64,000 bases of DNA from Mytilus edulis. Its lineage: Eukaryota. The DNA lies in contig NC_092349.1 of assembly GCF_963676685.1 (NCBI RefSeq), forward strand, positions 49,352,001-49,416,000, in the 5' to 3' direction. Positions 38,101 to 64,000 of the stretch are shown piece by piece (position 1 is the first letter of the stretch; each line of letters starts with the position of its first letter). The notes beneath the pieces are model-generated. The model saw nothing but the letters and a program-made list of their open reading frames with translations. It was not told the DNA's origin and searched no databases. The position numbers were made by a program, and so were the translations under genes.

Positions 38101-41100
38101 GGTATTAATACAAGCATGTCTAAGTGCATCTAAAGCTAACATACCATTCTGTTGAATATTTTCCTGTTATGTGCACCTCTGGAGATGATCTTAAACTTTG
38201 GATCCTTTTTACTTTGTTGGAGTTCTAGTTTTTTCAATTTCATTTGTAATGCTGCCATTGAAAGTTCCGTTACTAGAAAAATCATTAAATAATGACATTT
38301 AATATCATGATTATGGTTATAGACAATATAAGAATTTAAATTGGAATAATATTCAACAAGTGACATTAATTTTCTATTTTATAAATGAGTAACACTGTTG
38401 ATCATGAGTAATGAGTTGGTTATTTAATTTCCATATTTTAATATATTTCTATTCTGTTTCAAAATAAGAAGATTTTTACGACCATTTTAAAATCATAGTA
38501 TAATTATAAAAGAATGAAAAAAGTAGAAAAGTAAAGGGTCTGTGTGCTTGTTTACGAGATATAAGCAATCGAAAATTTGTTAGGAAATCATTCTCTCTAG
38601 ATTTTTTCAGACTTTAATCATAGGCTACTTTTTTGTTGCAAAACTATCATACTATGAAAAAATAACAAAAATTTAAAAGATTTTCATCCATGGCTTTTTT
38701 TTAAAACTAGTCTATCCAAATTATTTTAGAAAAGAATTCCACTCAAGCCAGTGCTAGGAGTTGTCATAACCTTGCAGTGAGGTGACAGTTTGTTTGGCTC
38801 CTTGTTGAAAACCTCACTTTGATTTTGAGATGAAGAACAGCTATAAAAGTGCTGTTCCTTTGATTTTGTGTGTTTTGTTGTTGATCATGTACTAATTTTG
38901 TGTCATGGACCCCATATCCTCATGTTTTTCCATTATTGTCATGAAATAATGAAAATAAAAGTCGGGGTTAGCAGACAAACTTCTTTTAATGACAATACAT
39001 CATGTACATAGTTAAAACCATAAGATTACGAAAATCTGGCAAAAATTTAAAAACAAAGAGGAGCTTAATTATTCAATTAAGACTTTTAATGTTTAATGGT
39101 AAATAAAGAATAAGAATTAGCTAAAAAAAAATCTAGCGTGTTCTTCCATTGTTTGGTGTAAACATGATAATGCCATTGACAATGCCCTGCAATTGACAAA
39201 CCAAATATTCCAGAGATGTAAAATACTTACCTTTTTCAACTGATCCTGTAGATGATGCCTGGAAAACAGTTTCTATGGTACCAGTCTGTGAGCCAGGACC
39301 TTTGGTAGGATTTTCACAATGACATAAGCAGAGGATCGACCCATCTATGACATTAACATCTTTGTAAGACCTGTGTTTTTCTACATAAAATCCTTTATGT
39401 ACTAGATGAAGTTCACTTTCTTCCAACCTCAGTTTTTCAGCAAAAGAAGAAGTGATTTCTCCTATTTGATCATCTGGGTTATCAACTTTGACATGAATAA
39501 AAGTTTCGTTTAGTTCAGTATCTGTCCTATGTGGTAATGTTTTGTGGAGGTAAAGACGGAATATGATTCTACTTTCATTAAAAAGCATCTCTAAATTTGC
39601 TTTCTTTTCGATAATATCTTCTAAAAGAATAGATTCTTCTAAAGCTTTGTTCTTGTAGAGCAAGTCAAACTGCTTTGGCACTATATCACATCTTTTACAG
39701 ATCTTGTTCTTTAACTCTTCAACTGAACACATAGGATATTCTTGCAAGGTAAAACTGTCCATATCAGGTAACCCCGATTTAATTGTCAAGACTATTTTCT
39801 TAGTTCTACGAACAGTGAGCACAGAATTTGAGCTAATTTTTATGGGCAGGTTCTGTATATTTTCAACTTCGTCAATGACATTTGAACTACTAGGAAGGAA
39901 AACTTCAAAAGATTTTGGGTTCCAATGACAATGTTTTGAGATCTCATGCCTAAGTTCGACTGTTGAGCAATCAGATCTAACAAACACAGTGAATGGATGC
40001 ATGTGTCCTCTATCTTCGCCAATAATTCGGACCCTTAACTGAATATCAGAACATGGCTTAGGAGTAAAATGAACAATGAATGTTGGATAAGAATGATCAA
40101 TATTGGTGTCTCTCATTAACTGTTTTTCATTGAAGAGTAAACAAATGATGGCTTTCATATTGTAATCAACTCTTTTCCCCATGTCATCTGTGACAGAAAA
40201 ATCTGCAATGTCTTTACCACGAAATTCCTTCACTTCTTTAGCTGCTCTCTTTAAGTAAGCTCTTAAAAACTGCTCTATAGTATCTGTTGATAACTGTTCT
40301 ATATGTAAAACTAATGAAGTCTGATAAGATTGGTGGTAACAAAATTTTACTATGTTTGTTTTGATTTTCACTACATCAAAATAAAAAGCATTTCTTGGTA
40401 TTTGATTCAAAATTTCTACTTTCAATGTAGTTTCTCCGTTTTCATTGTCTAGGCACAGTTGAAGTAATTCCTCAGATAACTGTTGTTTAATGAACTGTAT
40501 GTTGTAGAGAGTGATTGGTTTTGGAAGCGATACACAGATAAAAGGTACTGGATTCTCTAAAAGCATTACATTGTTGCTTACAGGAGTTGGTGTATTTGCA
40601 AACTTTTTAGATATGAAAAATGTTAATTGTTTTGTTCTTTCATGTGGAAGAAACACAAATATTGATTGAAAAGATGACAGGAAGGATTTATGGTTTGTAC
40701 CAAAAATTTCAGCATATCGGTCGTTGTTAAGAACATTTGAAAATGGTCTTCCATATTTTAAAATAATGTCTCGCTGGACCAGCTCAAGGTTTACAAAAGG
40801 ATTTATTGGTATCTTAGAAATTTTGCCATCCACAATGTAACTACTGGTGGAATCACAATCGAAGATTAAGAATCGATATTCTGGCTTATCTGATGAAAAT
40901 GAATACCTTTTGAAACTGTTACTACCTTCTTCCGAGTTCAGTGACTCTGAAAAACATATAAAAACATGAAAAGTAATTGCAATGTTTTTGGAAACATGTT
41001 GCCTGAACTTTAACATAGCTTAACCAAATAAATAATGGGGATCTGTGTCCATTTTGCACAGATGATGCCCCTGCCTGCATTTAAAGTGGTGAAAGAACTG

Positions 41101-44800: not shown

Positions 44801-45631
44801 TAGTCCGAGATTACTCTGACGTCCAACGGCTGTTTTGCCAGACAAGCTAGAGCCGTGGGACGTCAGAGCTCGTCCCATATCAAAAAGTGGATATTTGCCC
44901 ACCCAAAATAGATGCGCTGCTTCGTCGCTTCTGAGGCCGACTGACGGCCTTGGAATTATATAAATCGTGCATCAATCTATTCATTTTTCATTTATCTCTT
45001 CATTTATGTAAGTTTCACCTACCTGCGAACCTTTATTTTTCCATATTTTAACAGTGTTCACAGTGACCCATCGATTTCGACATTTTGACTTTCACTTTCA
45101 AAGATAATCACGTGACCATGAGAAAACAGTGATGATTTATGCAAATGACCATAATGTAACACCTCCTTCATTTACGATGCAAGTTATCTAAATGTCCGAG
45201 AGCTTCCGATTGTAACGTGGTCGGAACTAAATGTTAAAAACATTGATCTCCTATAAAGGAGGTGAAAAAATATAAATATTTTCATATTTTGAGTCTCGAG
45301 ACCACGAACTCTCTCGTAACTTGACGTCCATTTGAAAGTGAAAGTCAAAATGCCAAATTGATGGGTCACTGTGAAAACTGTTAAAATATGGAAAAATAAA
45401 GGTTCGCAGGTAGGTGAAACTTACATAAATGAAGAGATAAATGAAAAATGAATAGATTGATGCCCGATTTATATAATTCCAAGGCCGTCAGTCGGCCTCA
45501 GAAGCGACGAAGCAGCGCATCTATTTTGGGTGGGCAAATATCCACTTTTTGATATGGGACAAGCTCTGGTGACCCACGGCCCCAGCTTGTCTGGCAAAAC
45601 AGCCGTTGGACGTCAGAGTTATCTCGGACTA
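44801..45631. mobile_element. Non-autonomous element with ~300-bp near-perfect TIRs (TAG termini, Academ-like)
   Basis: TAGTCCGAGAT...ATCTCGGACTA. Arms ~44801-45100 and ~45332-45631 are reverse complements, with CATGT on both flanks. Confidence 0.8.
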
Positions 45632-46455: not shown

Positions 46456-47799
46456 ATTCTGTAAGAATTGACGGATAGTTTTTATTAGAATATTTGAGGG
46501 TCTGTATGGTCCGTGTAACACTTATCAATTTAAAGTTTTAAAAAGTTTTGAAACTTTAGATTTTTGGAATTTTGATCAAAGTTTTAAAATATCAAAATTT
46601 CAAATTGTGTATAGGTTTTGAAATTTTGAAATTTTACCCAAATTATTAAAATATTAAAATTCTAAATATCGTTTATAAATTTGATAGTTTAGGAATTTGG
46701 TCAAACTTTTAAAATACTAAACCCAACGTGCAATTTTGATTATTTCACTTTTTGAAAGTTTGATTTTTTAAATTTTTGATTAAAATATCAAAAATAGAAA
46801 AGGGGCGAAAAGAGGGGTATCTGTAAACACTGATGTTAACACGGCTCTGATAACAATCATTCATAGTTATAAGTAAATAGCACGACATATATCAAATCAT
46901 TTTTAATTACAAAATAAATAATGGAAAGAAGAAGCCTGTTTTTTATGATGACATGATATATATAAAACATATTAGACATCGCATGGGATAACAGTATTCT
47001 GAAATTTTAAGGTTGTGCATCTATCAAAAATAATTTGTTAAACCTATTTAAACCGGAATTAAATAAGTTGATTTAAATCTTTTATATAAGGTTAGCGTTG
47101 AGATAATAATTCAGAGCTATTTGGTGTTCCAAGTGCCCAAACATTTAGAAGTAACAGTGAAAACTGACCAACTCGCAGTAAACCAAATAGTATTATTCGC
47201 CTTTTTGACGTTCATGATGAAGGAAGAGCCAGAAAAAGCGCTTTGGTCGCATGCATGCAATTTTAAACGTTTTTTTTTGGGTTTTGTTTATCGATTGCAT
47301 GACGATAATATATTGCCTTTTATGATTTATTTCAGTTCCAAGAAATAACACGGAAGGAATACTTAATGTATGGCGTCGCAATGAACGTTGAGCTAGGCGC
47401 GCTTCGATCAGCTGGCCCCTAGACAAAAAAGTGTACTGGTTTGACACAGTGATTATAGACGTCATACTAAACTTCGAAATATAACAATGAACTAAAATTA
47501 AAATCACACAAGACTTAAAAGGACAGAGGCTCCTGAATTGGGACAGGCGCACAAATGCGACGGGGTTAAACATGTTTCGTGAGATCAAAACCCTCCTCTA
47601 TACCTCTAGCCAATAAAGAATGAAAAACACACAGTAATACGAACAGTAGAACGCACTTGAAAAGGAATTCAAGTCCTATGTCAGAATAGGAAACAAACGA
47701 AACTAATCAAAATGACAATGATAATAAATTAACAAAGGACTACAGTAGTAGGGTGTGTGGAGTTTTAGGCACCCCAAAAACGCAGGGCGCGAGGGCGCA

Positions 47800-48095
47800 G
47801 CCAAATATGGCCAAGCCCCGCCCCTTTATCGAAACGTCCCCTCCGGTTGACCAAATATGGTCAGCTGACTAGGACGACACAACATGACTCATAAGTCCAT
47901 CGTTCGTAATTACGCTCAGTTGAAATGACTCATATCCACAAATAAGGTAAGAACGTTACAATATGACTCGTCGTCAGACGTGACTCATGTTGATCGGGGA
48001 TGATTCAAAAACGGAAGGGTGATATCCATATACGGACATGTATCGAATCGACCAATGGCAAGGACGGAACGAAAGTATAAAACGACCCCGCCCCC
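47800..48095 (+). promoter_or_regulatory. Left-end promoter/enhancer of the PC4-like gene
   Basis: CArG CCAAATATGG at 47801 and 47851; AP-1 TGACTCA at 47885, 47926 and 47981; GC boxes CCCCGCCCC; CCAAT ~48052; TATAAAA ~48076. Confidence 0.65.
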
Positions 48096-48128: not shown

Positions 48129-48638
48129 ATGGAGAGCGCACGTTGTAACTTAGAGTTGGGCAATAATAGATTTGTCCAGGCCACCGAATGGAAAGGAGAA
48201 ATAAGAATCGACGTGCGAGAATGGGAGATGAAAGACGGAAAGTTGAAACCCACGAAAAAAGGACTCAGCCTTCCCCTGTCCAGATGGAAGCTTCTCGTCG
48301 ACAGTTTTGATATGGTGGACCAAGCTCTTGAAGAAAACAAAGAGTATTTGACACATCTCGGGAGAAATATGTACTGTAGCGTAAAAGCTTCCGGAATATG
48401 TGTCGATCTGAGACAGCACTTTTTGCCATCACAACAAACCGACGTGGTACCCACACGAAAAGGGATAACCCTAAGACCATCCGAATACGCCAAATTAAAA
48501 AACGTGGCTAGTGTAATTGGAGACTTTGTGCCAGAACTGTGTTCCATCGTCCCGTGTCCATATAGTTCAGACCATCAAAACCAGCTGGGATTTTTAACAT
48601 GTTCGGAGTGCAATCCAAACCACTACACGGAATGGTGA
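48129..48638 (+). CDS. Tandem PC4/Sub1-like ssDNA-binding protein with C-terminal Cys/His motif
   Basis: Two PC4 signatures, EWKGEIRIDVREW..KPTKKGLSL..W and VDLRQHF..PTRKGITL..Y, plus the tail C..HQNQLG..CSEC. Confidence 0.8.
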   Translation: MESARCNLELGNNRFVQATEWKGEIRIDVREWEMKDGKLKPTKKGLSLPLSRWKLLVDSFDMVDQALEENKEYLTHLGRNMYCSVKASGICVDLRQHFLPSQQTDVVPTRKGITLRPSEYAKLKNVASVIGDFVPELCSIVPCPYSSDHQNQLGFLTCSECNPNHYTEW

Positions 48639-49588: not shown

Positions 49589-49935
49589 TGACTCATTACA
49601 TATATAGACGTATGGATGGTGCTCATTGTTTTTTCATGGTCATCGCATGACTTAATCGATATCGATTCATCTCTCCTTATATGACCAGATACAATTCACC
49701 CATTTCTGACTCATTTCTTAATATAGACCCGTGGAAGACTCATTGTTTTGTCATGGTCATCGCGTGACTCATTCGATATCGATTCATCTCTCATTATATG
49801 ACCAGATTCATTTCGCCTACTTCTGACTCATTTCTTAATATAGATCCGTGGCTGACTCATTGATTTTACATGTTCATCGTGTGACTCAATCTCTCCTTAT
49901 ATGGTCAGATACCTTCCGCCGTACATATATAAGGC
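49589..49935 (+). promoter_or_regulatory. Tandem ~118-bp x3 enhancer array and TATA upstream of the ZnF-PolB gene
   Basis: Units start at 49589, 49707 and 49824. Six perfect TGACTCA, CArG CCTTATATGG at 49895, TATATAAG ~49926. Confidence 0.7.
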
Positions 49936-50034: not shown

Positions 50035-50358
50035 ATGGATTTGAAGTGCGATGTATGTTCCAAAACATTTTTAAGACCATCCGATCTAAAAAGGCACCAA
50101 AATTCTGTACATGGAACTCATTCATTTTCGTGTGACAAATGTGAGAAGAAGTTCACTAGAAAAGACAAATTTCTAGAACATAATAGAAAATGTACCATAA
50201 TTTGTAAATATTGTGACAGTAATTTTGAACACCAACGAGATTTTAACGAACATGATCATTTACTCCATACGGACAAAAAATATATGTGCAACAAATGTGA
50301 GAAGAAATATTCGAATAAAAGAGAATTAAAGAATCACCGAGACAAATGTTTACAATCT
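50035..50358 (+). CDS. C2H2/C2HC zinc-finger array exon; predicted exon 1 of the PolB gene
   Basis: MDLKCDVCSKTF..L.RH...H plus three further fingers, ending at a phase-0 donor TCT|GTAAGT. Confidence 0.8.
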
Positions 50359-51011
50359 GTAAGTATATCTTTCTTTTTCCGTGTCACAATACATATATCA
50401 TGACAGATTCATACAAAAGTAATCTTTTCATTTGCGTAAACACTAATTAAAACTAACAAAAATTATTATAGATAATTATAAATGATATCAATTTCAAAGT
50501 AACATTCTCAAATCAAAATCGAGCGAACAGAAAATACAGAAAACAGAATGATATTGAACAATATGTGCAACGCAATTAATAAATTATCAGTTTTATTGAA
50601 ATTAATCATTTTAGTCTCGATGTACTACACTTGTTTTCCCTGTTGTATCTCGAAATAATCGAATCAGTTAATTTATTTGTTGATATAAAGAGAAAATAAT
50701 TTCTACCATTTTTTCAAGAATTGTGAATACGTTTCGAAATATTTTGAACATTGATTAATTTAATTTAAGAATAGTGGAGGATAAATCGAAATTGCAATAC
50801 AAAAATAAAATCAGACGTGAATCATTATTATTTCAGATTAAAGATATCTGAAAATAATTTCGCTTTTCTCTTTTCTGTTTAAAATGAACTGAGTGATTTA
50901 CTTTTGTACGAATCTGTTATGAAATCTAACAAACCTTGACAGTTATATAATGTATATTCCATAGATAATAAATCCAGTGTAAAGAATTAAATCATCACAT
51001 TTTCACAATAT

Positions 51012-51789
51012 TTATTTATTTTTTTTAGGCCTGAGGTATACCACCTCAGGTCTTACATATTTTTTGTTTTTTCTTGTCTCTCTTTTCAATTCCCTTATCA
51101 GGGAATTGGCCCTGTCCTGGAGCGCAAGATGTGCACTCCACAACTCATCCACTTCCGGATGTCTCCAGTGAATTGTCTGAAAAAAAAATAAAAAATCTAT
51201 AAATATGACTCCTAAAACAGGGGTATGAGGAAATACGTCTCAAAGGGTCTTTTACGTTTTTAGATATCAGTCATTGGTTGAAAAATATTCAGTTTCTTCT
51301 AAATCAATGACCAATAATTGTATACCTATTTTGTCAGTTTTGTTTGGACTTATTCTGCTCGATTATGGATTTGATTGGTGTTCGGTAATTTTGTTATTAA
51401 CCTTATTTAACATGTAGAACAATAACTCTCTAGGTTTTTTTTTTTGTTTGTTTTTTTTTTTTTTTTGGAGTTAAAAAAAAAATGAAATAAAAAAAATAAT
51501 AGCTACTCACTGCTTCATCATTTACACTCTCCCCTATGGACGATGGGGTTTCTCTCGTCCACAGCCTTCTCCTCAGATCAGTATTAGTCTGAAATAAATT
51601 AAATAATAATAATAATAAACGAAAAGTTATTGTGTAAATGAATATGAGATTATATCACATGATGTAAAATTGAAATAGAGAGTAACCGTAACCGTAGTAT
51701 ATTGCATTCATTCATCATTCAGGTGTAAAGATAAAATTGAAACTCACCCATTCCTCATTCGGAGTACTTGATGTAGGGTTAAACGACAT
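51012..51789 (-). CDS. Nested antisense 3-exon gene in the PolB intron; 94-aa basic-tailed protein of unknown function
   Basis: Exons 51789-51748, 51588-51511, 51176-51012. Both donors are GTGAGT, both acceptors are polyT-TTCAG, both introns are phase 0, and the stop overlaps AATAAA. Confidence 0.72.
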
Positions 51790-52280
51790 TTCTCTTCAAT
51801 GGCTAGGATGCGAATGAAGAGGACAAAGGAACTTTCTTTCTATCGACTTTCAACTCTTGTTTATTCTCAAAGCTAATTTCTTTAATTGCGACAGTCATAC
51901 CTTCATTTGATGTACAGAACTGGTGTATTTGGTACAAACCTTTCCTTCGTTTATCGTATAAATATCTATGTTCCAATGTATGTCCTTCTAGCAGACGTAC
52001 TCATGTCTGGCGACATCAAGCTTCATTCTTTGTCCAAACATCCAGACAAGAGTTGTACTTAAATTATCGATATATATATAGATTAAGATTATTGTTTAAC
52101 CTCGAGATAAACACGGGGATCGAAAATGAAACTGACACACCCGAATTACTATATAATGATTGAAACATAGTGATTCGTTATTTCATATGTAACCATCAAT
52201 ATGGATATATTAGTATACGTACTTATATTCACGGAAAGTAAATGAAAGAATATATGAAAAAAAGATAATAATGTGGTAAT

Positions 52281-52316
<36 letters not shown>

Positions 52317-52737
52317 TATTTCGGATTTTTTTTATAATGCCTTGTATGTGGAAATAGATCTTTAAATTTTTTAAAAGATTGAAATTGATTTCATCAAGAT
52401 TGAAGCTAATAATATGGTATATAAAAATAGTCACATGTAATCACTGGTACTTAGATGTTTATCTCAATAAGATATATTTATTTGATTGTATTAATTATAT
52501 TCTCTTTAAACATTATTAAAAACACATGTCCAAGTAATGAAGCAAGAGGTGAAATCAAATTATCAATGTATTGAACAGATTGTGGAAAGAGAGCTAACTC
52601 TGTCTTAACTCCACAATAAAATATAGGAAAACACTACTTGTCTCCCATGTGCGTAAAAATCAAAGTACTTAGAGCACTGACATAAACTGAGGGAAAAAGA
52701 ATCAATGGATCAATAATATCATCATCTTTTTTTTCAG

Positions 52738-55700
52738 GAGAAATCTACTACTACCAAAGAACCTTCAACAGTCCCCGAGCCGGGACCCTCGGAAGGATTT
52801 AGGTGTCGTCGATGCACGGCTAGATTTTCCAATCGCCGCGAGTTGTACCTACACGGCATGCAACATCACTATCAGACAGGTGCCGGTGGTTTACAATCTC
52901 GACCTTGGACCCACGATGAAGCCCCTTGGGAAGTGGAGGAAGACAAGGCTTTGAGGACCGTTTACGAGGCCAATGCGCCCCTCATTTTAGAGAATCACAG
53001 CGAGAGTTCCGTAACATCAACATATAACGTTCCACTGACCAACGACTTCACCGTTCCCCAATTGATGGAGCAAGCCGAACGTCTCTACGATCGCCAGGGC
53101 CACGCCTTTCGACTGAACTTGGAATTTGGGTTGATTCTACGCCACACGGAAACTGGAGACTACCGTTACTTCCGGCCATTTCAGAACGAATCACTCTTTC
53201 AAAGACCCATCTATATTTCACGCCGTAAAGACCTCAACCGACTGAAATTACGTCTTCAACGCTTTAACGTCACCGACTACATCTTACGTCAGAGACCCGA
53301 CACGAAATGGAAACCGTATTTAGTCACCAACGTCCGATTCGTCTTCTATTACCTAAACTATCCCCTGGGCAACGCCGTGAAGCTACCGGACTACATTCTG
53401 CAATCGAAATCAATCGTGGGATTAGATAAGACCCGAAATGGAAAACACGTATACAAAGACCATCTGTGCGCCTTTCGTTGCCTGGCCGTGCACCACGGAC
53501 ATCGGACAGACCAGTTGGAAACCCACACTAGAGCGTTATTCCAGCGTTGGATTCAATATGCAGAAGACAAGCAACTCGATTCAACAAATTTTCAAGGACT
53601 CCCGCTTCACCAGATGGCGTATTTCGAACATTGTTTTAGCATCAACGTCAATGTGTACCATCTACGTGACGACGACGTGGCACTCACCGTCTACAAATCC
53701 CGTTGTCATTATCCAGACTCTATGCACGTCAACCAATATGATCATCATTTATCGTACATCTCGAACTTGTCGGCGTACACTCAGAAATACCAGTGCGGCA
53801 CGTGCGATCGCCATTTTAAACGGGTAGACAGCATGAAACGACACCAACTGAAATGTACCGGGCAGACCGTCTACCGCTTCAAAGGCGGATTTTATTCCAA
53901 TCCCAAAACCATCTTCGATAAACTGGAAGAACACGGCATCCGCGTCCAAGATCGGTTATATCCGTGGTTCGTCGTCTACGATTTCGAGGCCATGCTGGTG
54001 TCCATACAAGAATCCAATTCCGACAAACTCACCTGGACACAGCGACACGAACCCATCTCCGTCTCCGTCTGCAGCAATGTCGAGGGATTTACAGAGCCAC
54101 ATTGTATCGTTGACCCCACCGCTCAGTCGCTCGTTCAACACATGGTGGACTACATGACAAAAATTGCATTGATCTCATATAAACTAGCCAAAGAGAAATT
54201 TGCCGATGCTTTTGACCAACTGGAGGCTGACATCGAGAACCCGTACCGTGCCCTCCTAGAAGACGACGACGAAGAGGGGTATAAACTGGACGCCTTTTTA
54301 TACGATGAGGAATTACAGGAGGAAAATGAAAAACAGAAAAAGGTGTTCCAAAAATTAAAAGAAGAGCTAGAGGCTTACTGTCAACAGATCATCGTATTAG
54401 GGTTCAATTCGGCAAAATACGACATGAACCTCATCAAGACTTATATTGCCAAATCATTACACATGCACAATCCGGGGGAAAAATTTACAGTGAAACGCAA
54501 TAACAGCTATGCCTGCCTGGCCAACGAGACCTTCAAATTTTTAGACATTACCTCGTATCTGGCACCCGGATTTAGCTATGCCAAATTTCTGAAAGCTTAC
54601 GAAGTAAGTGAAAATAAAGGATGTTTCCCCTACGAATGGTTCGACAGCGCTGACAAATTACATCATCCGACACTACCTGCCCACGAACAGTTTTACAGCT
54701 CATTAAAGGAATGTAACATCTCGCCAGAAGACTATGCTTATTGTCAAAAAGTGTGGACGGAGAAGGGTATGTCGACGTTCCGAGATTTTCTGGTGTGGTA
54801 TAACAATCTCGATGTCGGACCTTTCGTCCAGGCCGTGGCAAATTTACAGAAATTTTATTTCGAGCGGGACATCGACCTCTTCAAGACCAGCATTTCCGTC
54901 CCCGGATTAGCACGCCGGATGCTCTTCGATACCGGTCGACAAGTCGGTGCTTCGTTTGCTTTGTTCGACGACGCCAACAGTGACCTCTACTTCAGCATTA
55001 AACAGAATCTGATCGGTGGACCGTCCATCATCTTCAATCGCCATCACGAAGTCGGGCAAACGTTCATCCGGAACAATTTCAACAAGCCCTGCCAGAAGAT
55101 CCTCGGTTTCGACGCCAATGCCCTCTACCTCTATTGCATCGACCAAGACATGCCGACGGGTCCGTTCGTTCGCCGGCGATTAGAGGACGGCTTCAAACCT
55201 CAAAAGCGGGATAGGTATACCATGATGTATGACTGGATGGACTACCTGAATCACTCCCAGGGTCTCGACATCCGACACAAACTAAACACCGGCAAAGAAA
55301 AGAAGATCGGCTCGTATCCCGTCGACGGCTACGATCCTACTACAAATACAGTCTACCAATTCAACGGATGTTACTGGCACGGACATCAATGCTGGATGAC
55401 GAAAAACGTCAAAGACCAGAAATGGCAGGAGACCCGGCAAGCCAAATTCGACAAGACCGCCAAGACCACAGAGTTCATCCGGGCGCAAGGCTATAAAGTC
55501 GTCGAGAAATGGGAATGTCATTTTCGTCACGAGATCAGAAGAAATGGACAATTGAAATCCTTCTGCCACTCCCGGAAACCGGCGACCCCGCAACGATCCG
55601 TCACAGAAATCGAGATTCTAGAGGGGGTAGCTAGCGGTCGACTCTTTGGTATGGTAGAATGCGACATCCGGGTCCCAGACGAATGGCCCTCACACTTTCA

Positions 55701-57081
55701 ACATCCGACCATGACGCCGTACCAATACTTTGAGGAAATGTCACCTTTGTTCTGTACCACCGACGTCCCTTTCGAAGTCATCGGCGAACACATGCAAGAG
55801 CACGTTCGCCGTTTCGAATTGTCAGAAAAACCTCGTCGACTACTGGTGGGAGGTATGCGAGGACGCCAGATGCTAATCGCCACTCCGCTCCTGAAATGGT
55901 ACCTGGAACACGGTATGCTCGTCACCAAGATATACCAAGTCGTGGAATTTAAACCGCAGCGATGTTTCAGGGATTTCGTTAACGTCGTCAGCGACAACCG
56001 ACGACTGGGAGACGCCGATCCCGACAAGACCATCATCGCCGAAACCTCCAAACTCCACGGCAATAGTGCTTACGGCGGAACCATCATGGACCAGGAAAAA
56101 TTTCAATCGGTGACGTACGTCGAAGGCGAGGGCAGGGTCATGATCGAGGCCAACAAGCCACAATTTAAAAAGATGACCACTCTGTTAGACGAAGACGAAT
56201 ACTTCGAAGTGGAAAAGTCGAAAGAGAAATTGGACATCAACCTTCCCATACAGATCGGCTATTTCATCCTACAGTACGGTAAACTAAGAATGTTACAATT
56301 TTATTTCGATTTTCTGGACCGGTTTGTAGACCGCTCCGATTTCCAGTATTGCGAAATGGACACCGATTCCGCATACATGGCCCTCTCCGGACCCGATTTG
56401 GTTAGCGTCATCAAACCACACCTGCTAGATACTTATCAACGAGCTCTCATCGGCTGTTGTCGGGACGATTTTGAACCCGATTGGCTCCCGCGCACGTGTT
56501 GCACCAAACATGCCAAGTACGATAAGAGGACGCCCGGACTATTTAAAGTCGAATACGAGGGTGACGTCATGATCGGACTATGTTCCAAGACCTATATCGT
56601 ACAAAAGTCCAAACTCGTCTACACTTCGAACACAAAGATGGCAGCCTTCCGACTTCTCAGACGTGCCAAGAAACTTGCACCGAAGCGCCTCGTCCATCGT
56701 CCGCGTCTCGTCCGGGATGTCAAATTCAGTTCCAAAGGCGTCACCAAGAGACGGGTCAAGGCACCCATGACCACCTTTCGCCACGTCCTCAATACACAAC
56801 GCGTGGGGAACGGATCGCTTAAAGGATTCCGAGCCAGAAACAACGGCATAGCCACCTATGAACAGACGAGAAATGGCTTCTCATATTTTTACTGTAAGAG
56901 GAAACTTTTAAGCGACGGCGTGAGTAGTGTTCCTCTCGATCTAGAACTGTGCCCCGTGCCTATGGAAATCGACGAAAGCGAAACCCCCATGGAAATAGAC
57001 GAACCCGAGACGGTTCTGGACGACGACGATCGATATTTAATACAACTACTGGAAACTAACTTTGATAGTGATGGTGAATGA
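52738..57081 (+). CDS. polB: Protein-primed family B DNA polymerase (ZnF, terminal-protein region, OTU-like domain, exonuclease, polymerase with Vsr-like insertion)
   Basis: ExoI VVYDFEA, ExoII GFNSAKYD, ExoIII YNNLDV, motif A DANALY, motif B KLHGNSAYG, motif C MDTDS, KTY. The frame is open from the acceptor TTTTTTTCAG|GAG at 52738. Confidence 0.95.
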   Translation, partial: EKSTTTKEPSTVPEPGPSEGFRCRRCTARFSNRRELYLHGMQHHYQTGAGGLQSRPWTHDEAPWEVEEDKALRTVYEANAPLILENHSESSVTSTYNVPLTNDFTVPQLMEQAERLYDRQGHAFRLNLEFGLILRHTETGDYRYFRPFQNESLFQRPIYISRRKDLNRLKLRLQRFNVTDYILRQRPDTKWKPYLVTNVRFVFYYLNYPLGNAVKLPDYILQSKSIVGLDKTRNGKHVYKDHLCAFRCLAVHHGHRTDQLETHTRALFQRWIQYAEDKQLDSTNFQGLPLHQMAYFEHCFSINVNVYHLRDDDVALTVYKSRCHYPDSMHVNQYDHHLSYISNLSAYTQKYQCGTCDRHFKRVDSMKRHQLKCTGQTVYRFKGGFYSNPKTIFDKLEEHGIRVQDRLYPWFVVYDFEAMLVSIQESNSDKLTWTQRHEPISVSVCSNVEGFTEPHCIVDPTAQSLVQHMVDYMTKIALISYKLAKEKFADAFDQLEADIENPYRALLEDDDEEGYKLDAFLYDEELQEENEKQKKVFQKLKEELEAYCQQIIVLGFNSAKYDMNLIKTYIAKSLHMHNPGEKFTVKRNNSYACLANETFKFLDITSYLAPGFSYAKFLKAYEVSENKGCFPYEWFDSADKLHHPTLPAHEQFYSSLKECNISPEDYAYCQKVWTEKGMSTFRDFLVWYNNLDVGPFVQAVANLQKFYFERDIDLFKTSISVPGLARRMLFDTGRQVGASFALFDDANSDLYFSIKQNLIGGPSIIFNRHHEVGQTFIRNNFNKPCQKILGFDANALYLYCIDQDMPTGPFVRRRLEDGFKPQKRDRYTMMYDWMDYLNHSQGLDIRHKLNTGKEKKIGSYPVDGYDPTTNTVYQFNGCYWHGHQCWMTKNVKDQKWQETRQAKFDKTAKTTEFIRAQGYKVVEKWECHFRHEIRRNGQLKSFCHSRKPATPQRSVTEIEILEGVASGRLFGMVECDIRVPDEWPSHFQHPTMTPYQYFEEMSPLFCTTDVPFEVIGEHMQEHVRRFELSEKPRRLLVGGMRGRQMLIATPLLKWYLEHGMLVTKIYQVVEFKPQRCFRDFVNVVSDNRRLGDADPDKTIIAETSKLHGNSAYGGTIMDQEKFQSVTYVEGEGRVMIEANKPQFKKMTTLLDEDEYFEVEKSKEKLDINLPIQIGYFILQYGKLRMLQFYFDFLDRFVDRSDFQYCEMDTDSAYMALSGPDLVSVIKPHLLDTYQRALIGCCRDDFEPDWLPRTCCTKHAKYDKRTPGLFKVEYEGDVMIGLCSKTYIVQKSKLVYTSNTKMAAFRLLRRAKKLAPKRLVHRPRLVRDVKFSSKGVTKRRVKAPMTTFRHVLNTQRVGNGSLKGFRARNNGIATYEQTRNGFSYFYCKRKLLSDGVSSVPLDLELCPVPMEIDESETPMEIDEPETVLDDDDRYLIQLLETNFDSDGE

Positions 57082-57611
57082 CATGTATACACATTCTGTG
57101 AACTTTAAAATTTGATACATTCAATTTTCCAATTGTATTCATTTTATCGTGTGATAATCGAAGACGTATGACATTGGGTAGCCATGTTTTTTTGTTGTTT
57201 TTTTTTTGTTGTTTTTTTTTTTTATACAAGTAACTATACATTTCCACTATGACGAGAATGGGTACTGAAGTTCGATTAAAACCACATAACTCGTAAACGA
57301 TCAGAATTGAAAAACACCATGTAAATATTTTTGTCAACAATAAATGTATATTGTGTATAATAAAATGTATATTGTGTATGTTTCATATTGTCGTTCATCT
57401 GGCCTGATGGAATGTCGAAAACTATTTTTCGTCCTTATCCCCCCCTCCTTGTCATAACGAAAAATAGTTCTTGACTTTCTAGTCTACAATAAATAATAGG
57501 AAATGAATGAAAACAAATTAGACACTAAATATTTATTTACATCAGTTACAAATTGAACAAAATACCCAGAAACAACATCTATATATATTAATCCATAAAT
57601 AATTAGCAATG

Positions 57612-58025
57612 TTAATTTGTAAAGCGGTCATCAAGTTGGATTATTTTCTTTGTCATTTCATAGAATCCATCTTTGTCTGGTAAATTATTTTCTCGCCATT
57701 CACAGTTTTGTAAAAGTTTTATAAATGTATTTTTCAATTCCAATGATATGTCTGTAAGTTTAGTGTCCTTTTTCCACAATTCTAAGATTTCTTCGCAATC
57801 AACATTTTCCAAAGCATCGTCGAAGTAGATATTCAGTTGTTCTAACTCGGACATCATGAGACAGGAATGATTTCTCTGACTGGGATGATTGTTTCTACAT
57901 CCAAAACAATGTTTTCTGGTTAAAAGTCTGACTTCTTCTACCACTTTTCTAGCATATAGGAACAAGTATATATCAATCGTCATTCGAATCTCTTTACCCT
58001 CAGTAATGGTTTGTGTTGATTCCAT
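57612..58025 (-). CDS. Polinton accessory protein with CxGC..HPSQ..HxC motif, 137 aa
   Basis: CFGCRNNHPSQRNHSCL, with TATAAA ~45 nt upstream and AATAAA downstream (~57531). Confidence 0.7.
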   Translation of the reverse strand: MESTQTITEGKEIRMTIDIYLFLYARKVVEEVRLLTRKHCFGCRNNHPSQRNHSCLMMSELEQLNIYFDDALENVDCEEILELWKKDTKLTDISLELKNTFIKLLQNCEWRENNLPDKDGFYEMTKKIIQLDDRFTN

Positions 58026-59135
58026 CTCGATGGTTTAGAAAGACTCTGTGAACGTTGGATGCCAACGCTGTTTATAAAGGATATTTGATCACGTGATGGC
58101 GTGTCGTTTGATAAGCTTAACAACACTGACAGATGTCGAAATCTGGAATTTGATGTGATAGCGAATAGACAATTGGGTTCCCATTTTAAATGTTCCGTTT
58201 GTATATAGTCGTCTTTTTTCCCATTGTAAGGTTACAGTAAAAACATGTTACACGATCCGGTGTAAAATAATCCATTAATAATTAAATCTTTGCACAATCT
58301 GTCTAGGCCAATGTTCGAATCATATAATACAATTTTAACGGATGTTTTGGTTGATGGAAATAAACGAGTAGGAGACGGTCATGGACGACGAGGATCGATA
58401 TCTGATTTATCTATTGGAAACTAACTTTGACAGCGAATGAGATCGTATATTGTGTGTGTGTGACACACATTCTGGGACCTTTTAAATTTGATAGATCCAA
58501 TTGAACTCATTTTGTCCTGTGAAAATCGAAGAGGCATGACATTGGGTAGTCATGTTTTGTGTTTTTTTTTAATTTTTCATGCAAGTTCCCATACATTTTC
58601 TATAGTAAAAAAGAAGACTCGAAAGAACAGTTCAGTTCATTTTTTGAGCGAGTAAAAACACATTCTTGTTAAATGTAAACAATCGGAAATGACCAGTGGG
58701 GTAAAATGAAAACGTTCTAAAACTTAATGGAAATTACACTAGACTGGGACTATTTTTCTGTGAACTTTTAAATTTGATAGACAATTTTTCCAACTGTACT
58801 CATTTTGTCGTGTGTAAAAAGAATGTGTGACCATGTTTGTTTTTTTTTTAAATACGAGTAACCATACATTTCCTATCACTCGAAATTTGTGAATAAAAAC
58901 ACATAATTGACTTGTAAATAATAATTTGTGTATAATAAAATGTATATTGTGTATGTTTCATATTGTCGTTCATCTGGCCTGATGGAATGTCGAAAACTAC
59001 TTTTCGTCGTTATCAACCCCCACCCCCCCTCCTTGTCATAACGAAAAATAGTTTTTGACTTTCCAGTCTACAATAAATAATAAACTCGATAGTCTAATCT
59101 ACATTTTTATTCATCCACATTTTACAAAGACATAT

Positions 59136-59303
59136 TTAAAGCGAAATCCATTGTTTATTGTCTTTAGTCACTTGGTCTTTGACCGGAATTCCGGGAGGTC
59201 CTAGTTTAGGCGTCTTCTTCTTTTTCTTGAATCCTTGACCCGTCTGCGATTTTTCACGATCGGCTAAGAGTGTGTGGTAGCGGTCGTAAGGTACCAGTAT
59301 CAT
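59136..59303 (-). CDS. Small basic 55-aa protein (candidate virion core protein) not in ORF track
   Basis: MILVPYDRYHTLLADREKSQTGQGFKKKKKTPKLGPPGIPVKDQVTKDNKQWISL; ATGA overlap with the upstream stop; AATAAA follows. Confidence 0.7.
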   Translation of the reverse strand: MILVPYDRYHTLLADREKSQTGQGFKKKKKTPKLGPPGIPVKDQVTKDNKQWISL

Positions 59304-59611
59304 TTTCTCCATGACTCTATGATATCCAGAAGATGAACGATGGCCGCTGTTCCCTTTTGCAGAACACGAAGTCTGTCTTTTCTCGACGACGTTTTTCTAC
59401 CCAAGATGCTGATGATCTTTTTGAATCTCTTTAATTTGACTTTCTCCGAGGGTGTCAGGACGATCGTTCCTTTGATGACGTTGTGAGCAATCTCGCTCAA
59501 GACTTTTAGTTGAGATTTGTCGATGGTCTTTAACAACGCCTTTCGTTGATCTTTCTTGGCGGTCCGCAACAGGTGTAGAAAATGGTGATGGGTGTCCAGC
59601 AGTCGACTCAT
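59300..59611 (-). CDS. Conserved small basic Polinton protein (103 aa), paralog of 63001-63345
   Basis: Likely start is MSRLLDTHHHFLHLL, with TATAAGAG 27 nt upstream. The pattern FL.LL..A....RK.LL......Q...LSE...N...G.I is shared with the paralog. Confidence 0.75.
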   Translation of the reverse strand: MSRLLDTHHHFLHLLRTAKKDQRKALLKTIDKSQLKVLSEIAHNVIKGTIVLTPSEKVKLKRFKKIISILGRKTSSRKDRLRVLQKGTAAIVHLLDIIESWRK

Positions 59612-59640: not shown

Positions 59641-60294
59641 TTATAATTTCTGTGGAATGTAGATCACCGTATCTTCTCCCGGGAACACGTGGGTCCTCAA
59701 TCGATAGGTATCGTCGGAATTTGGTGCCAAATCGACGATTAAGTAGCCGTAGTCTCGCGAAGTGGCGTCGGAAAAGCTTTTCATCAGTATCTTCCAACGT
59801 CCTGGATAGAGTTGTCGCCCCAAGGTCACGATCTGGGAGACGTCTCTGACGTTTTTCATCAGAACCAAGTACGTGGTGTTGAGGGCGATGGTTCGCGACC
59901 TGGATCCTTGTACATATAGGTTTTGGGTCAGAAACAAGACGCTCAATCGTCGGTGGTGGCATCCCTGTGTGAATAGCAGTTCCATGTCGACGTTGCGCAC
60001 TACTTGATGCATCAGATCGTCCAACACGATCAGGCGGTGACGTCTATCGCCGGTGAATTCCCGGACCGTGTCCATCGTAGGTAAGCCCTCGTGAAAAACG
60101 ATGTTGGGAATCGTCTTTTCCATCTCTTCGAATAGCGGCTGGTGGATGCCGAAACAATACAAGATGGCTTCCGGTGGCTCTTCGGCGTACATCTCTTTTA
60201 AATGTGTCAATAGTCTGTACACGAATCGCGTCTTCCCGCTGTTGGTCATCCCCGTGATGCACATGCTCGTGCAAGGTAAAAACGGAAACGACAT
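59641..60294 (-). CDS. A32/FtsK-like genome packaging ATPase
   Basis: Walker A GMTNSGKT, Walker B LIVLDD, HHRRLSVLFLTQN. Confidence 0.92.
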   Translation of the reverse strand: MSFPFLPCTSMCITGMTNSGKTRFVYRLLTHLKEMYAEEPPEAILYCFGIHQPLFEEMEKTIPNIVFHEGLPTMDTVREFTGDRRHRLIVLDDLMHQVVRNVDMELLFTQGCHHRRLSVLFLTQNLYVQGSRSRTIALNTTYLVLMKNVRDVSQIVTLGRQLYPGRWKILMKSFSDATSRDYGYLIVDLAPNSDDTYRLRTHVFPGEDTVIYIPQKL

Positions 60295-60324: not shown

Positions 60325-60555
60325 TTATGACTTTGACGATTTGAGCGTGGGACTGGGTAGAGCGTATCCGATGGCGCTACTTAGCAGCGTGATCCACAAT
60401 TCGCTTTTACCGTTTTGCATCGACAGGTTGGCGATCGAGGTGATGATGATGACGTAGACGACTATCATCTGACAAAAGTAGACGATTTCCGATTTGGGTA
60501 GTTGGCTGCCCATCACTTGCCATCGTTCACTATGCGTGCTGCTCTCGCGCTCCAT
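60325..60555 (-). CDS. Small two-helix membrane protein
   Basis: Hydrophobic IVYFCQMIVVYVIIITSIANL and LWITLLSSAIGYALP; TATAAGAG 26 nt upstream. Confidence 0.7.
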   Translation of the reverse strand: MERESSTHSERWQVMGSQLPKSEIVYFCQMIVVYVIIITSIANLSMQNGKSELWITLLSSAIGYALPSPTLKSSKS

Positions 60556-60995
60556 CCTCGACGGGTTGTACCAATTCTTCCTCTTATAAACTTCTTCACT
60601 TTGCGATCGTTGTCTCGCAGATCTACGGTGCTAAAGTCGTTGAGGATCTCTTGAAAAGATCGCGAGCCGTGTCTCTCCCGGACGAAATGAATGCAGTAGG
60701 CTCCACAGGTATTGCTGTCTTCCGGTTGGACGGCATCCGGCGTATACAGATAGGTCGGTCCCAGGACTTCTTCGAATCGACGATGGTAGTCACCCGGACG
60801 GTTTCCCAGCGAGTCGAAAAATTCGGGAGGTCCTTGAAGAGGAAAACGAAACACGGTCCAGTGAGTCCCAGGTCTGGAACACGGATCGGTGTTGACGACG
60901 TACGTCTGTGGTCTCTGTGGTCGCACTAATTCGTCGGCACAGATGGCTCGGACGTGTTGGTCTCTCAGCGCTCTTTCCACCTCTCGGTTGTTCAT
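60513..60995 (-). CDS. Adenain-like cysteine protease (virion maturation protease)
   Basis: NTD..PGTHW (His), FFDSLG (Asp), Q..DSNTCGAYC (Gln/Cys). Confidence 0.92.
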   Translation of the reverse strand: MNNREVERALRDQHVRAICADELVRPQRPQTYVVNTDPCSRPGTHWTVFRFPLQGPPEFFDSLGNRPGDYHRRFEEVLGPTYLYTPDAVQPEDSNTCGAYCIHFVRERHGSRSFQEILNDFSTVDLRDNDRKVKKFIRGRIGTTRRGWSARAARIVNDGK

Positions 60996-63347: not shown

Positions 63348-64000
63348 TTACGCGGAAGGTTGTGGTTCCGGTCTCTTATAGTCTTTCAAAGACGTCAGGG
63401 AGATCCAACTGTTGAATTTCGCCGGCCATCCCATCCACTTTACCAACGCGTCTTGACGTCGTCGGCGAATGACTTTTTCGATACGGTACACCGTCTCCTC
63501 GGTGACTCTCACCCTGTTCAGCTCCGATTGGTAAAAGGTATCTTCCACGACGTCACCGAGCGTGTCCTTCAACGTGTAATACGATATGCCATCTTTCGTG
63601 CCCCTGTCGTCCACCACGAAAAACTCCATCGTCCATCGTTCGTCGTACTCTCGATCAAACGGCTGTCTAACGTGCGAGATGCGGACGGTATCTCCTTTTC
63701 GGAACGCGTAGCCTCGTGTCGCTGGTTTCACGTACTGTTGCGTCGGGTACTGGAGTTTCCACAGTCGGGCTTCGTCCTTTTTAGTCACCGCACGGGGAGC
63801 CATCTTGATGGAACGGTGGTAGGCGGCATTGTAGCTCTGTGTGGTGTCGTCCAGCACGTCGATCCAACGATGCGTTTGATGACGGGTTAGGTATCGGAAG
63901 AGTCTAGCCTTCAGCGTCTTGATGCATCGTTCGGCGTAGGAACTTTTCTGTTCGTTCTGGGTGTAAAAATAGTCAACCTTCTCGGCTTTCAAGAAACGTT
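63348..64000 (-). CDS. int: Retroviral-like (rve) integrase with C-terminal chromodomain; 5' part outside window
   Basis: AERCIKTLK (catalytic E), YN...HRSIKMAP, F..GD.VRIS and chromodomain YRIEKVI...LVKWMGWPAKFNSWI. Confidence 0.92.
   Translation of the reverse strand, partial: RFLKAEKVDYFYTQNEQKSSYAERCIKTLKARLFRYLTRHQTHRWIDVLDDTTQSYNAAYHRSIKMAPRAVTKKDEARLWKLQYPTQQYVKPATRGYAFRKGDTVRISHVRQPFDREYDERWTMEFFVVDDRGTKDGISYYTLKDTLGDVVEDTFYQSELNRVRVTEETVYRIEKVIRRRRQDALVKWMGWPAKFNSWISLTSLKDYKRPEPQPSA

Follow-up and report, generated by a model that had tools for sequence, protein, structure and literature searches.

We analyzed a 64,000-nucleotide stretch of the Mytilus edulis genome (NC_092349.1, positions 49,352,001 to 49,416,000 of the forward strand), referred to below as the window; coordinates are window positions. 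Its right-hand part is occupied by a Polinton, a virus-like element that begins at 47743 and ends 2.35 kb past the window end. Polintons and adintoviruses are recognized by terminal inverted repeats (TIRs) together with a 6-bp target-site duplication, and this element has both, the duplication being GACTAC. It represents a recently active family that is transcribed in bivalves: a second copy, which lies on another contig and is 99.4% identical across 18.6 kb, has its own, different target duplication, which shows that the family moved recently. The closest named proteins are labelled Mytilus edulis.

Upstream of the polymerase exon (PolB) of this Polinton lies a short exon encoding zinc fingers (the ZnF exon; Table 1), and the two are joined by splicing. 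Our main reading, to which we give a probability of roughly 0.55, is that the spliced 1555-amino acid (aa) protein carries five fingers that likely bind the DNA ends of the element, and that it is likely cut at QTGA/G, directly behind the fifth finger, by the element's own protease.

Table 1. Positions of the Polinton features that fall within the window; X1, X4, X6 and X7 are sequencing runs.
Feature	Position	Strand	Remarks
ZnF coding exon, 108 aa, four fingers	50035..50358	+	phase-0 donor; transcript contigs extend back to ~49970
GT-AG intron, 2379 nt, GC 0.29	50359..52737	+	joint in X4, X6, X7
pPolB exon, 1447 aa	52738..57081	+	domain order in text
Fifth zinc finger	52804..52869	+	all but last residues upstream of first in-frame ATG
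QTGAG, predicted adenain-type cleavage site	52873..52887	+	sequence; conserved motif
vOTU domain, approximate limits	53425..53772	+	catalytic Cys244 and His337 (exon-frame numbering)
Antisense exon 1, predicted, 14 aa, ATG, phase-0 donor	51748..51789	-	M. edulis model P0085 uses exon
Antisense exon 2, 26 aa, phase 0 at both ends	51511..51588	-	acceptor joined to ZnF donor in X4
Antisense last exon, 54 aa, basic, helical, conserved hairpin inside	51012..51176	-	spliced to exon 2 in X1, X4
Left TIR, ~340 bp, begins AGTAGT	47743..48082	none	inverted match 99.1%, 2.35 kb past window end
PC4-like single-stranded DNA-binding protein	48129..48638	+	Pfam PC4 E 1.6e-24; contigs of X4, X6, X7 cover gene
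58-aa basic protein with QTGQG	59136..59312	-	sequence; 55 aa counted from second Met
A32-like packaging ATPase	59641..60294	-	Pfam Pox_A32 E 1e-4, just under curated cut-off
Adenain-like cysteine protease	60513..60995	-	Peptidase_C5 E 0.006, under curated cut-off
Probable major capsid protein, 420 aa	60992..62254	-	inferred from size and position; without Pfam match
Probable integrase, 368 aa, 3' part with chromodomain-like C-terminus	63348..64000	-	gene start outside window

Splicing of the finger exon to PolB

A first reading of this stretch, made from the letters alone (the sequence-only reading), had proposed a finger exon ending in TCT/GTAAGT at phase 0, an acceptor at 52738 that opens the PolB frame 120 nt before its first in-frame ATG (52858), and a product of ~1555 aa across a 2379-bp intron. 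The coordinates hold, and recomputation gives 2379 nt and 1555 aa; the acceptor reads TTTTTTTCAG/GAG, with base 52738 as the first of the exon. The junction 50358/52738 that the same reading predicted was found, with GT..AG borders, in three runs that are probably RNA and come from three studies (X4, X6, X7), where contigs cross it with 30, 161 and 188 letters, respectively, on the shorter side. In these runs coverage tracks the exons and leaves the intron just upstream of the acceptor uncovered. From the 24 listed runs we examined eight (X1, X2, X3, X4, X6, X7, X21, X24), most of them guessed, not recorded, to be RNA. The joint is not listed in X1, X2, X3, X21 and X24, where the depth on the ZnF exon is 0 to ~4; X21 (89 reads) and X24 (1 read), raw-read RNA runs by species label, are too thin for a joint.

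Other families point the same way. In the families of this genome with introns of 2379, 3985 and 302 nt, the donor GT lies three codons past the last finger Cys in phase 0; the latter two have a phase-0 acceptor ahead of the same linker, and three more database open reading frames (ORFs) read through the donor at the same place. Gene models that join finger and PolB modules exist in M. edulis (P0004) and in Crassostrea virginica (P0044, P0046; 1559-1588 aa), the oyster intron lying four codons upstream of the mussel position.

Some of the transcript data weigh against this picture. X1, X2, X3 and X21 carry unspliced sequence upstream of the acceptor, which in X21 is sense-strand and has a depth of 2-2.5, compared with 0.4-0.5 on the ZnF exon. 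Such sequence fits an internal PolB start, or damaged copies. In addition, the joint-bearing runs are RNA by guess, not by record, and the comparison covered probable RNA runs. The unspliced contig of X3 has a changed acceptor base, and several damaged copies of the element are without the finger exon. We regard the splice from 50358 to 52738 as practically certain.

Of the four fingers in the ZnF exon, two are of the C2H2 type and the other two of the C2HC type (Pfam zf-C2H2, E 2e-14). The PolB exon encodes, in order, a linker, the fifth finger, a region resembling a terminal protein (TP), a vOTU domain, an internal finger, an exonuclease and a polymerase with a possible Vsr-like insert. The polymerase is recognized by Pfam (DNA_pol_B_2, E 3.3e-9, above the cut-off), and the exonuclease and polymerase motifs were located. 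A homologue search with the first 330 residues returned 42 proteins; 37 of them were aligned with the window protein (38 rows), the truncated or distant P0003, P0004, P0023, P0041 and P0042 being omitted. The last His of the fifth finger is invariant in 38/38 rows, and so are the catalytic Cys and His of the vOTU. An AlphaFold2 model of the first 454 residues, built on this alignment, has a pLDDT of 81.9. Foldseek matches it in the PDB to OTUD1, OTUD3 and DUBA (probability 0.96-0.99, E 0.02-0.09; OTUD1: 0.99, E 0.044) and also to Y-family polymerases, and in BFVD to adintovirus and MELD-virus PolB with E down to 9e-17. It counts against the assignment that every PDB match has E > 0.001. The modelled TP-like and vOTU arrangement matches the pPolB scheme of PMC11071308, in which the TP is described as resembling the little-finger domain found in Y-family polymerases. 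Taken together, the RNA joints, the common donor, the TP- and OTU-like folds and the invariant OTU Cys/His pair bear out the ZnF-TP-OTU-PolB product that had been proposed. A GCYWHG stretch lies at residue 876 of the PolB exon; Pfam Vsr gives a weak match (E 0.032), only in the C. virginica relative P0046.

The motif behind the fifth finger and the proposed role of the leader

As the sequence-only reading had stated, QTGAG directly follows finger 5. A cut at QTGA/G would yield a 157-aa five-finger fragment. The motif stands right behind the last finger in 35/38 rows (26 QxGxG and 9 QxGG), whereas elsewhere in these rows it occurs in none of 3,830 upstream and only three times in 43,431 downstream residues. 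According to PMC4246237, the adenovirus protease cuts (M/I/L)XGG/X and (M/I/L)XGX/G and tolerates Gln at P4, and the TP precursor (pTP) of human adenovirus E4 (HAdV-E4) is cut at QRGF/G. QTGA/G therefore fits the adenain substrate consensus with the relaxed Q/N at P4, and the idea of an adenain-type site is strengthened accordingly. The protease itself has the His, Asp, Gln and Cys expected of the family, with its catalytic residues aligned in a match to African swine fever virus S273R (E 0.015). The earlier reading had also pointed to a matching QTGQG in the small basic protein. This QTGQG exists, but its match to QTGAG is at chance level (2 Q-G motifs observed, 0.9 expected, in 4,088 element residues; P=0.23), and we rejected it as independent support for the site. 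What exceeds chance is the conservation of the PolB site across families; QTGQG is kept only in mussel-type families and is absent from distant homologues of the basic protein.

More distant relatives speak against a general role of the site. Of 77 metagenomic loci fetched as DNA, 21, all animal-type, show the finger-5 region: seven have a Q motif, four another xxGG/xxGxG and ten none. Because the three motif-less loci examined still encode the protease, cutting behind finger 5 is not universal; in three of the ten, Q-G motifs lie further upstream. The 38 rows, moreover, are related, so that conservation could also mean a flexible Gly linker. On balance we consider a cut at QTGA/G by the element protease slightly more probable than not, a prediction from sequence. 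As a separate observation, three distant Polintons (L082, L085, L091) have Cys-rich PolB leaders of 420-740 aa with Q-x-G-x-G motifs between modules.

In adenovirus, host factors bring the TP-polymerase to the terminal repeat. It is tempting to suppose that in the mussel element the fingers themselves would recruit TP-polymerase to the terminal repeat, that the vOTU would then separate TP from polymerase, leaving finger-TP on the genome end, and that finger-TP would be trimmed during virion maturation, as adenovirus pTP is. Binding of the origin by the fingers is credible at somewhat less than even odds. Maturation trimming is the simplest reading of the site, since the fingers precede TP, which is bound for the genome 5' end, and since it is in maturing particles that adenain is active. 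The parallel is with the genome-linked TP of adenovirus, which AVP trims N-terminally at xxGX/G or xxGG/X, tolerating Gln at P4 (PMC4246237); the window TP differs in being fused to the polymerase, its removed part would be a zinc-finger array, and its cleavage is predicted.

The same cut might instead free the five-finger fragment to act as a transactivator, either on the late YATAAGAG promoters or on host genes. The cut site directly behind finger 5 would release the array whole; YATAAGAG occurs nine times on the late strand, seven times at a distance of 18-78 nt ahead of an ORF start; and stand-alone zinc-finger genes ("Ziftr") are described in some adintoviruses (10.1101/2024.03.25.586562). 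For a TATA-like late motif, however, the element's own TBP and PC4 homologues are simpler candidates, an activation domain is not evident in the fragment, finger exons are 40-50% different between families with closer polymerases, and adenain is reported to act in maturing virions (PMC4246237), late for such a role. We consider release of a transactivator unlikely, and less likely than maturation trimming. Somewhat more probable, yet still well short of the preferred reading, is that the fingers are retained, the motif being mainly a linker, or that a cut in the Gly-rich motif is made by the vOTU of the same protein or by a host isopeptidase. The ten motif-less loci, the intact catalytic pair in all 38 rows, the proposal that vOTU processes pPolB itself (PMC11071308) and the chance-level QTGQG, gone from distant homologues, all suit this possibility. 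The alternation of GxG and GG, with Gln constant at the fourth residue ahead of the bond, suits the two site types of adenain better than it suits a simple linker or an enzyme strict for diglycine, and the vOTU cut has been placed between TP and vOTU (PMC11071308). The best reading in our analysis remains a leader that binds the origin and, as happens to adenovirus pTP, is trimmed at maturation, not released as a transactivator.

Age and possible exchange of the finger leader

The sequence-only reading took the AT-rich ZnF exon beside a GC-richer PolB exon as a hint of exon capture. The difference in composition is real (GC 0.309 and 0.485; GC at third codon positions (GC3) 0.287 and 0.574). 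The view that capture created the fusion did not survive a survey of relatives for ZnF presence, which that reading had itself suggested. Of the 21 metagenomic loci with the finger-5 region, 18 have a frame that is closed upstream. At least two further fingers are encoded within the stop-free PolB frame, without an intron, in 14 of these. Our tree includes 40 database proteins, and in 20 of them a single called ORF has fingers ahead of finger 5 (three of the 20 are NCBI gene models and one is from Logan, in which introns could be hidden). A decayed family in the same genome (L047, L055-L058) is likewise intron-less, and 24 distant metagenomic loci (23-30% identity) are finger-less. The finger leader is a clade-wide feature, mostly intron-less. 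In a quick maximum-likelihood tree (61 rows, midpoint root, without a one-clade test) the split forms make up one 20-row clade (SH-aLRT 99) nested inside the continuous forms. We conclude with high confidence that the leader is older than the intron. The intron would have been gained later, in the linker, within a bivalve sub-clade. This history is not without difficulties: the split clade includes one continuous sub-clade, and the intron of the oyster lies four codons upstream, so that two intron gains or one loss are needed.

Capture of the ZnF exon from a host zinc-finger gene, newly fused to PolB through the intron, nevertheless has points in its favor. Exon and intron are AT-rich, and the GC3 of the exon is host-like (0.287, with 0.289 for a host ORF); nine intron-less relatives have leaders within 0.05 GC of their polymerases, measured with rough boundaries. 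These two observations on composition are awkward for our interpretation. Finger exons also look exchanged between families: in P0004 finger identity is 60% beside a 96% identical TP region. Set against this are the intron-less leaders, which are widespread and flank the split clade, including those in the same genome, and the nine genomic exon matches and three protein hits that share the four-finger layout, among which a host donor gene was not found. Another ORF of the element (57615-58025; GC3 0.33) is as AT-rich as the ZnF exon. Since intron-less leaders are wider and apparently older, host exon capture is refuted as the origin of the fusion, and we consider the whole scenario very improbable.

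The finger exons diverge by 40-50% between families with much closer polymerases, and P0004 shows the same contrast within one protein (P0004 is a gene model in which a mis-join is possible). Because the finger exons vary far more than the adjoining polymerase, the sequences suggest that exon plus intron was exchanged as a cassette between families after the intron arose; the AT-rich exon indicates, at most, such a later exchange. Gain of the intron would thereby have turned exon and intron into an exchangeable cassette carrying a small antisense gene, described below. One genomic locus (L051) pairs the intron of a sister family with a polymerase 88% identical to the window PolB, which points to cassette exchange; it belongs to a decayed sister-family cluster at 24-40 Mb of contig C11 (L017, L019-L022, L051, L153-L159). 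A search of viral contigs found no relative.

The antisense gene, the rest of the element and known systems

The intron houses a conserved, spliced antisense gene of three exons, all phase 0, with a predicted product of 94 aa. Two other families have homologues inside their introns, likewise antisense and equipped with an ATG exon of their own. Exon 1 was not seen spliced in the eight runs, and contigs of X1 and X3 are unspliced across its donor. Pfam and the ESM Atlas returned nothing usable for the protein, and no long inverted repeats flank the segment, so there is no hint of an invertible cassette. The last exon contains a hairpin (51030-51052) that is kept at synonymous sites in two families (-14.7 and -20.4 kcal/mol). 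On the plus strand a strong acceptor at 51028 precedes the hairpin; its use would give a finger-only protein with a stop two codons later.

One contig of X4 (record 12, 212 nt, depth 158.7) contains, from the plus strand, the final 30 nt of the ZnF exon, followed by 51588-51511 and 51176-51073 on the minus strand. We therefore weighed whether the ZnF exon is shared, being cis-spliced to PolB and also trans-spliced to antisense exons 2-3 to give a 188-aa finger protein. This would add to, not replace, the reading of an origin-binding leader, and the polymerase-free protein would compete for the same DNA sites. The opposite-strand joint uses the exact donor and acceptor, is in frame, and shows no sequence likeness beyond the splice sites that might explain template switching. 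All five copies of exon 2 found in the genome (5/5) are antisense to ZnF/PolB, the layout is retained in families whose ZnF exons are 48-52% identical, the ZnF/PolB and antisense pre-mRNAs overlap and are complementary, and in X1 exons 2-3 are spliced while the leader is unspliced. The joint is, however, found in a single contig from one of eight runs, with 30 ZnF letters where the bridging rule asks for 31, so that it is not in the joints table; the organism label of X4 differs from that of the best-matching DNA, so that an inverted copy in the X4 organism is conceivable. X6 and X7 show the ZnF-PolB splice with no or next to no coverage of the antisense exons, X3 has deep antisense-exon coverage and zero ZnF coverage, three families show an ATG exon and a donor that belong to the antisense gene itself, and the fusion protein is absent among the database hits, where candidates are few. 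The shared exon is thus a tentative proposal. Equally speculative is its functional corollary that one finger exon serves two proteins, as a switch between the replicase and a polymerase-free competitor, the cassette being swapped as a specificity module.

Joining of a shared 5' exon to 3' exons from the opposite strand is reported for mod(mdg4) of Drosophila (PMC4387717) and eri-6/7 of C. elegans (10.1101/2024.01.15.575659), the latter by trans-splicing that uses Polinton-derived repeats. These are host genes, whereas the window case would lie inside the replicase gene of the element and would proceed through overlapping antisense pre-mRNAs. For mod(mdg4)-type cases the 3' transcript is expected to have no strong 5' splice site upstream; unlike mod(mdg4) and eri-6/7, the 3' gene here has a donor-bearing first exon of its own (donor 51747), with equivalent ATG exons in two families. 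The contigs of X1 and X3 leave this donor unused.

The remaining genes within the window are listed in Table 1. For the integrase only the part within the window was scanned, with Chromo at E 8e-4, under the cut-off, and no rve match. Beyond the window, the minus strand (L010: 660-1178, 1178-1417 and 1335-1973) codes for a homologue of TBP (Pfam E 3e-22) and for a CARD protein (E 2e-12), and has a 213-aa ORF that lacks a Pfam match and is macro-domain-like by eye. The element has 12 AP-1-like TGA(C/G)TCA sites (three per TIR and six upstream of the finger exon; 47885-47987 and 49589-49888 in the window), compared with four in 47.7 kb of host flank. CArG-like boxes lie at 47801, 47851 and 49895; the left TIR holds two of them together with three AP-1-like sites. 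From these sites, host stress control of the replicase promoter is possible. The PolB 3' end and downstream sequence are partly duplicated (56989-57445 and 58354-59020) around an AT-rich 137-aa ORF (57612-58025). The host flank contains a 628-aa minus-strand ORF (39133-41019) with ubiquitin-like domains (Pfam E 2.5e-9) and an inverted repeat pair resembling a miniature inverted-repeat transposable element (44801-45631; 277 nt, 96% complementary).

The polymerase shares with described Polinton and adintovirus pPolB (PMC11071308; PMC8502044) TP-like and vOTU domains in the order of the TP-vOTU-EXO-PALM layout and the catalytic Cys/His, and the element shares adenain, the A32-like ATPase and TIRs. 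It differs in its five-finger leader before TP, the linker intron and the conserved adenain-type site. The main text of PMC11071308 does not mention zinc, nor does that of PMC8502044 mention splicing; there and in 10.1101/2024.03.25.586562, Cys-rich ORFs named "Oncoid" that lie upstream of PolB, and finger genes named "Ziftr", are treated as separate genes. The mollusc pPolB2 with a VSR insert (10.1101/2023.08.22.554363) is likewise a mollusc Polinton polymerase, and the GCYWHG stretch of the window PolB and the weak Vsr match of its C. virginica relative recall it; the main text of that paper, as distinct from the extended alignments, mentions neither fingers nor an N-terminal part. The automatic models LOC111099418 and LOC111119200 of C. 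virginica and CAG2213159.1 of M. edulis already join a finger exon to PolB; they are named merely uncharacterized or C2H2, and the oyster intron is placed four codons upstream. The literature searched yielded no description of a finger leader spliced to Polinton PolB, nor of the cleavage site; alignments and annotated maps in supplements, Repbase or subscription papers may show the leader.

The finger leader adds a domain to the accepted layout of the Polinton polymerase. If the prediction is correct, QTGA/G gives the maturation protease of Polintons a concrete substrate with its cut site, and the fingers offer an answer to how such elements may locate their own DNA ends. The case also advises caution in annotation, since a small Cys-rich ORF upstream of PolB, even if annotated as a gene in its own right, can be a first exon. 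Should the opposite-strand joint prove true, it would mean trans-splicing within the replicase gene of a virus-like element.

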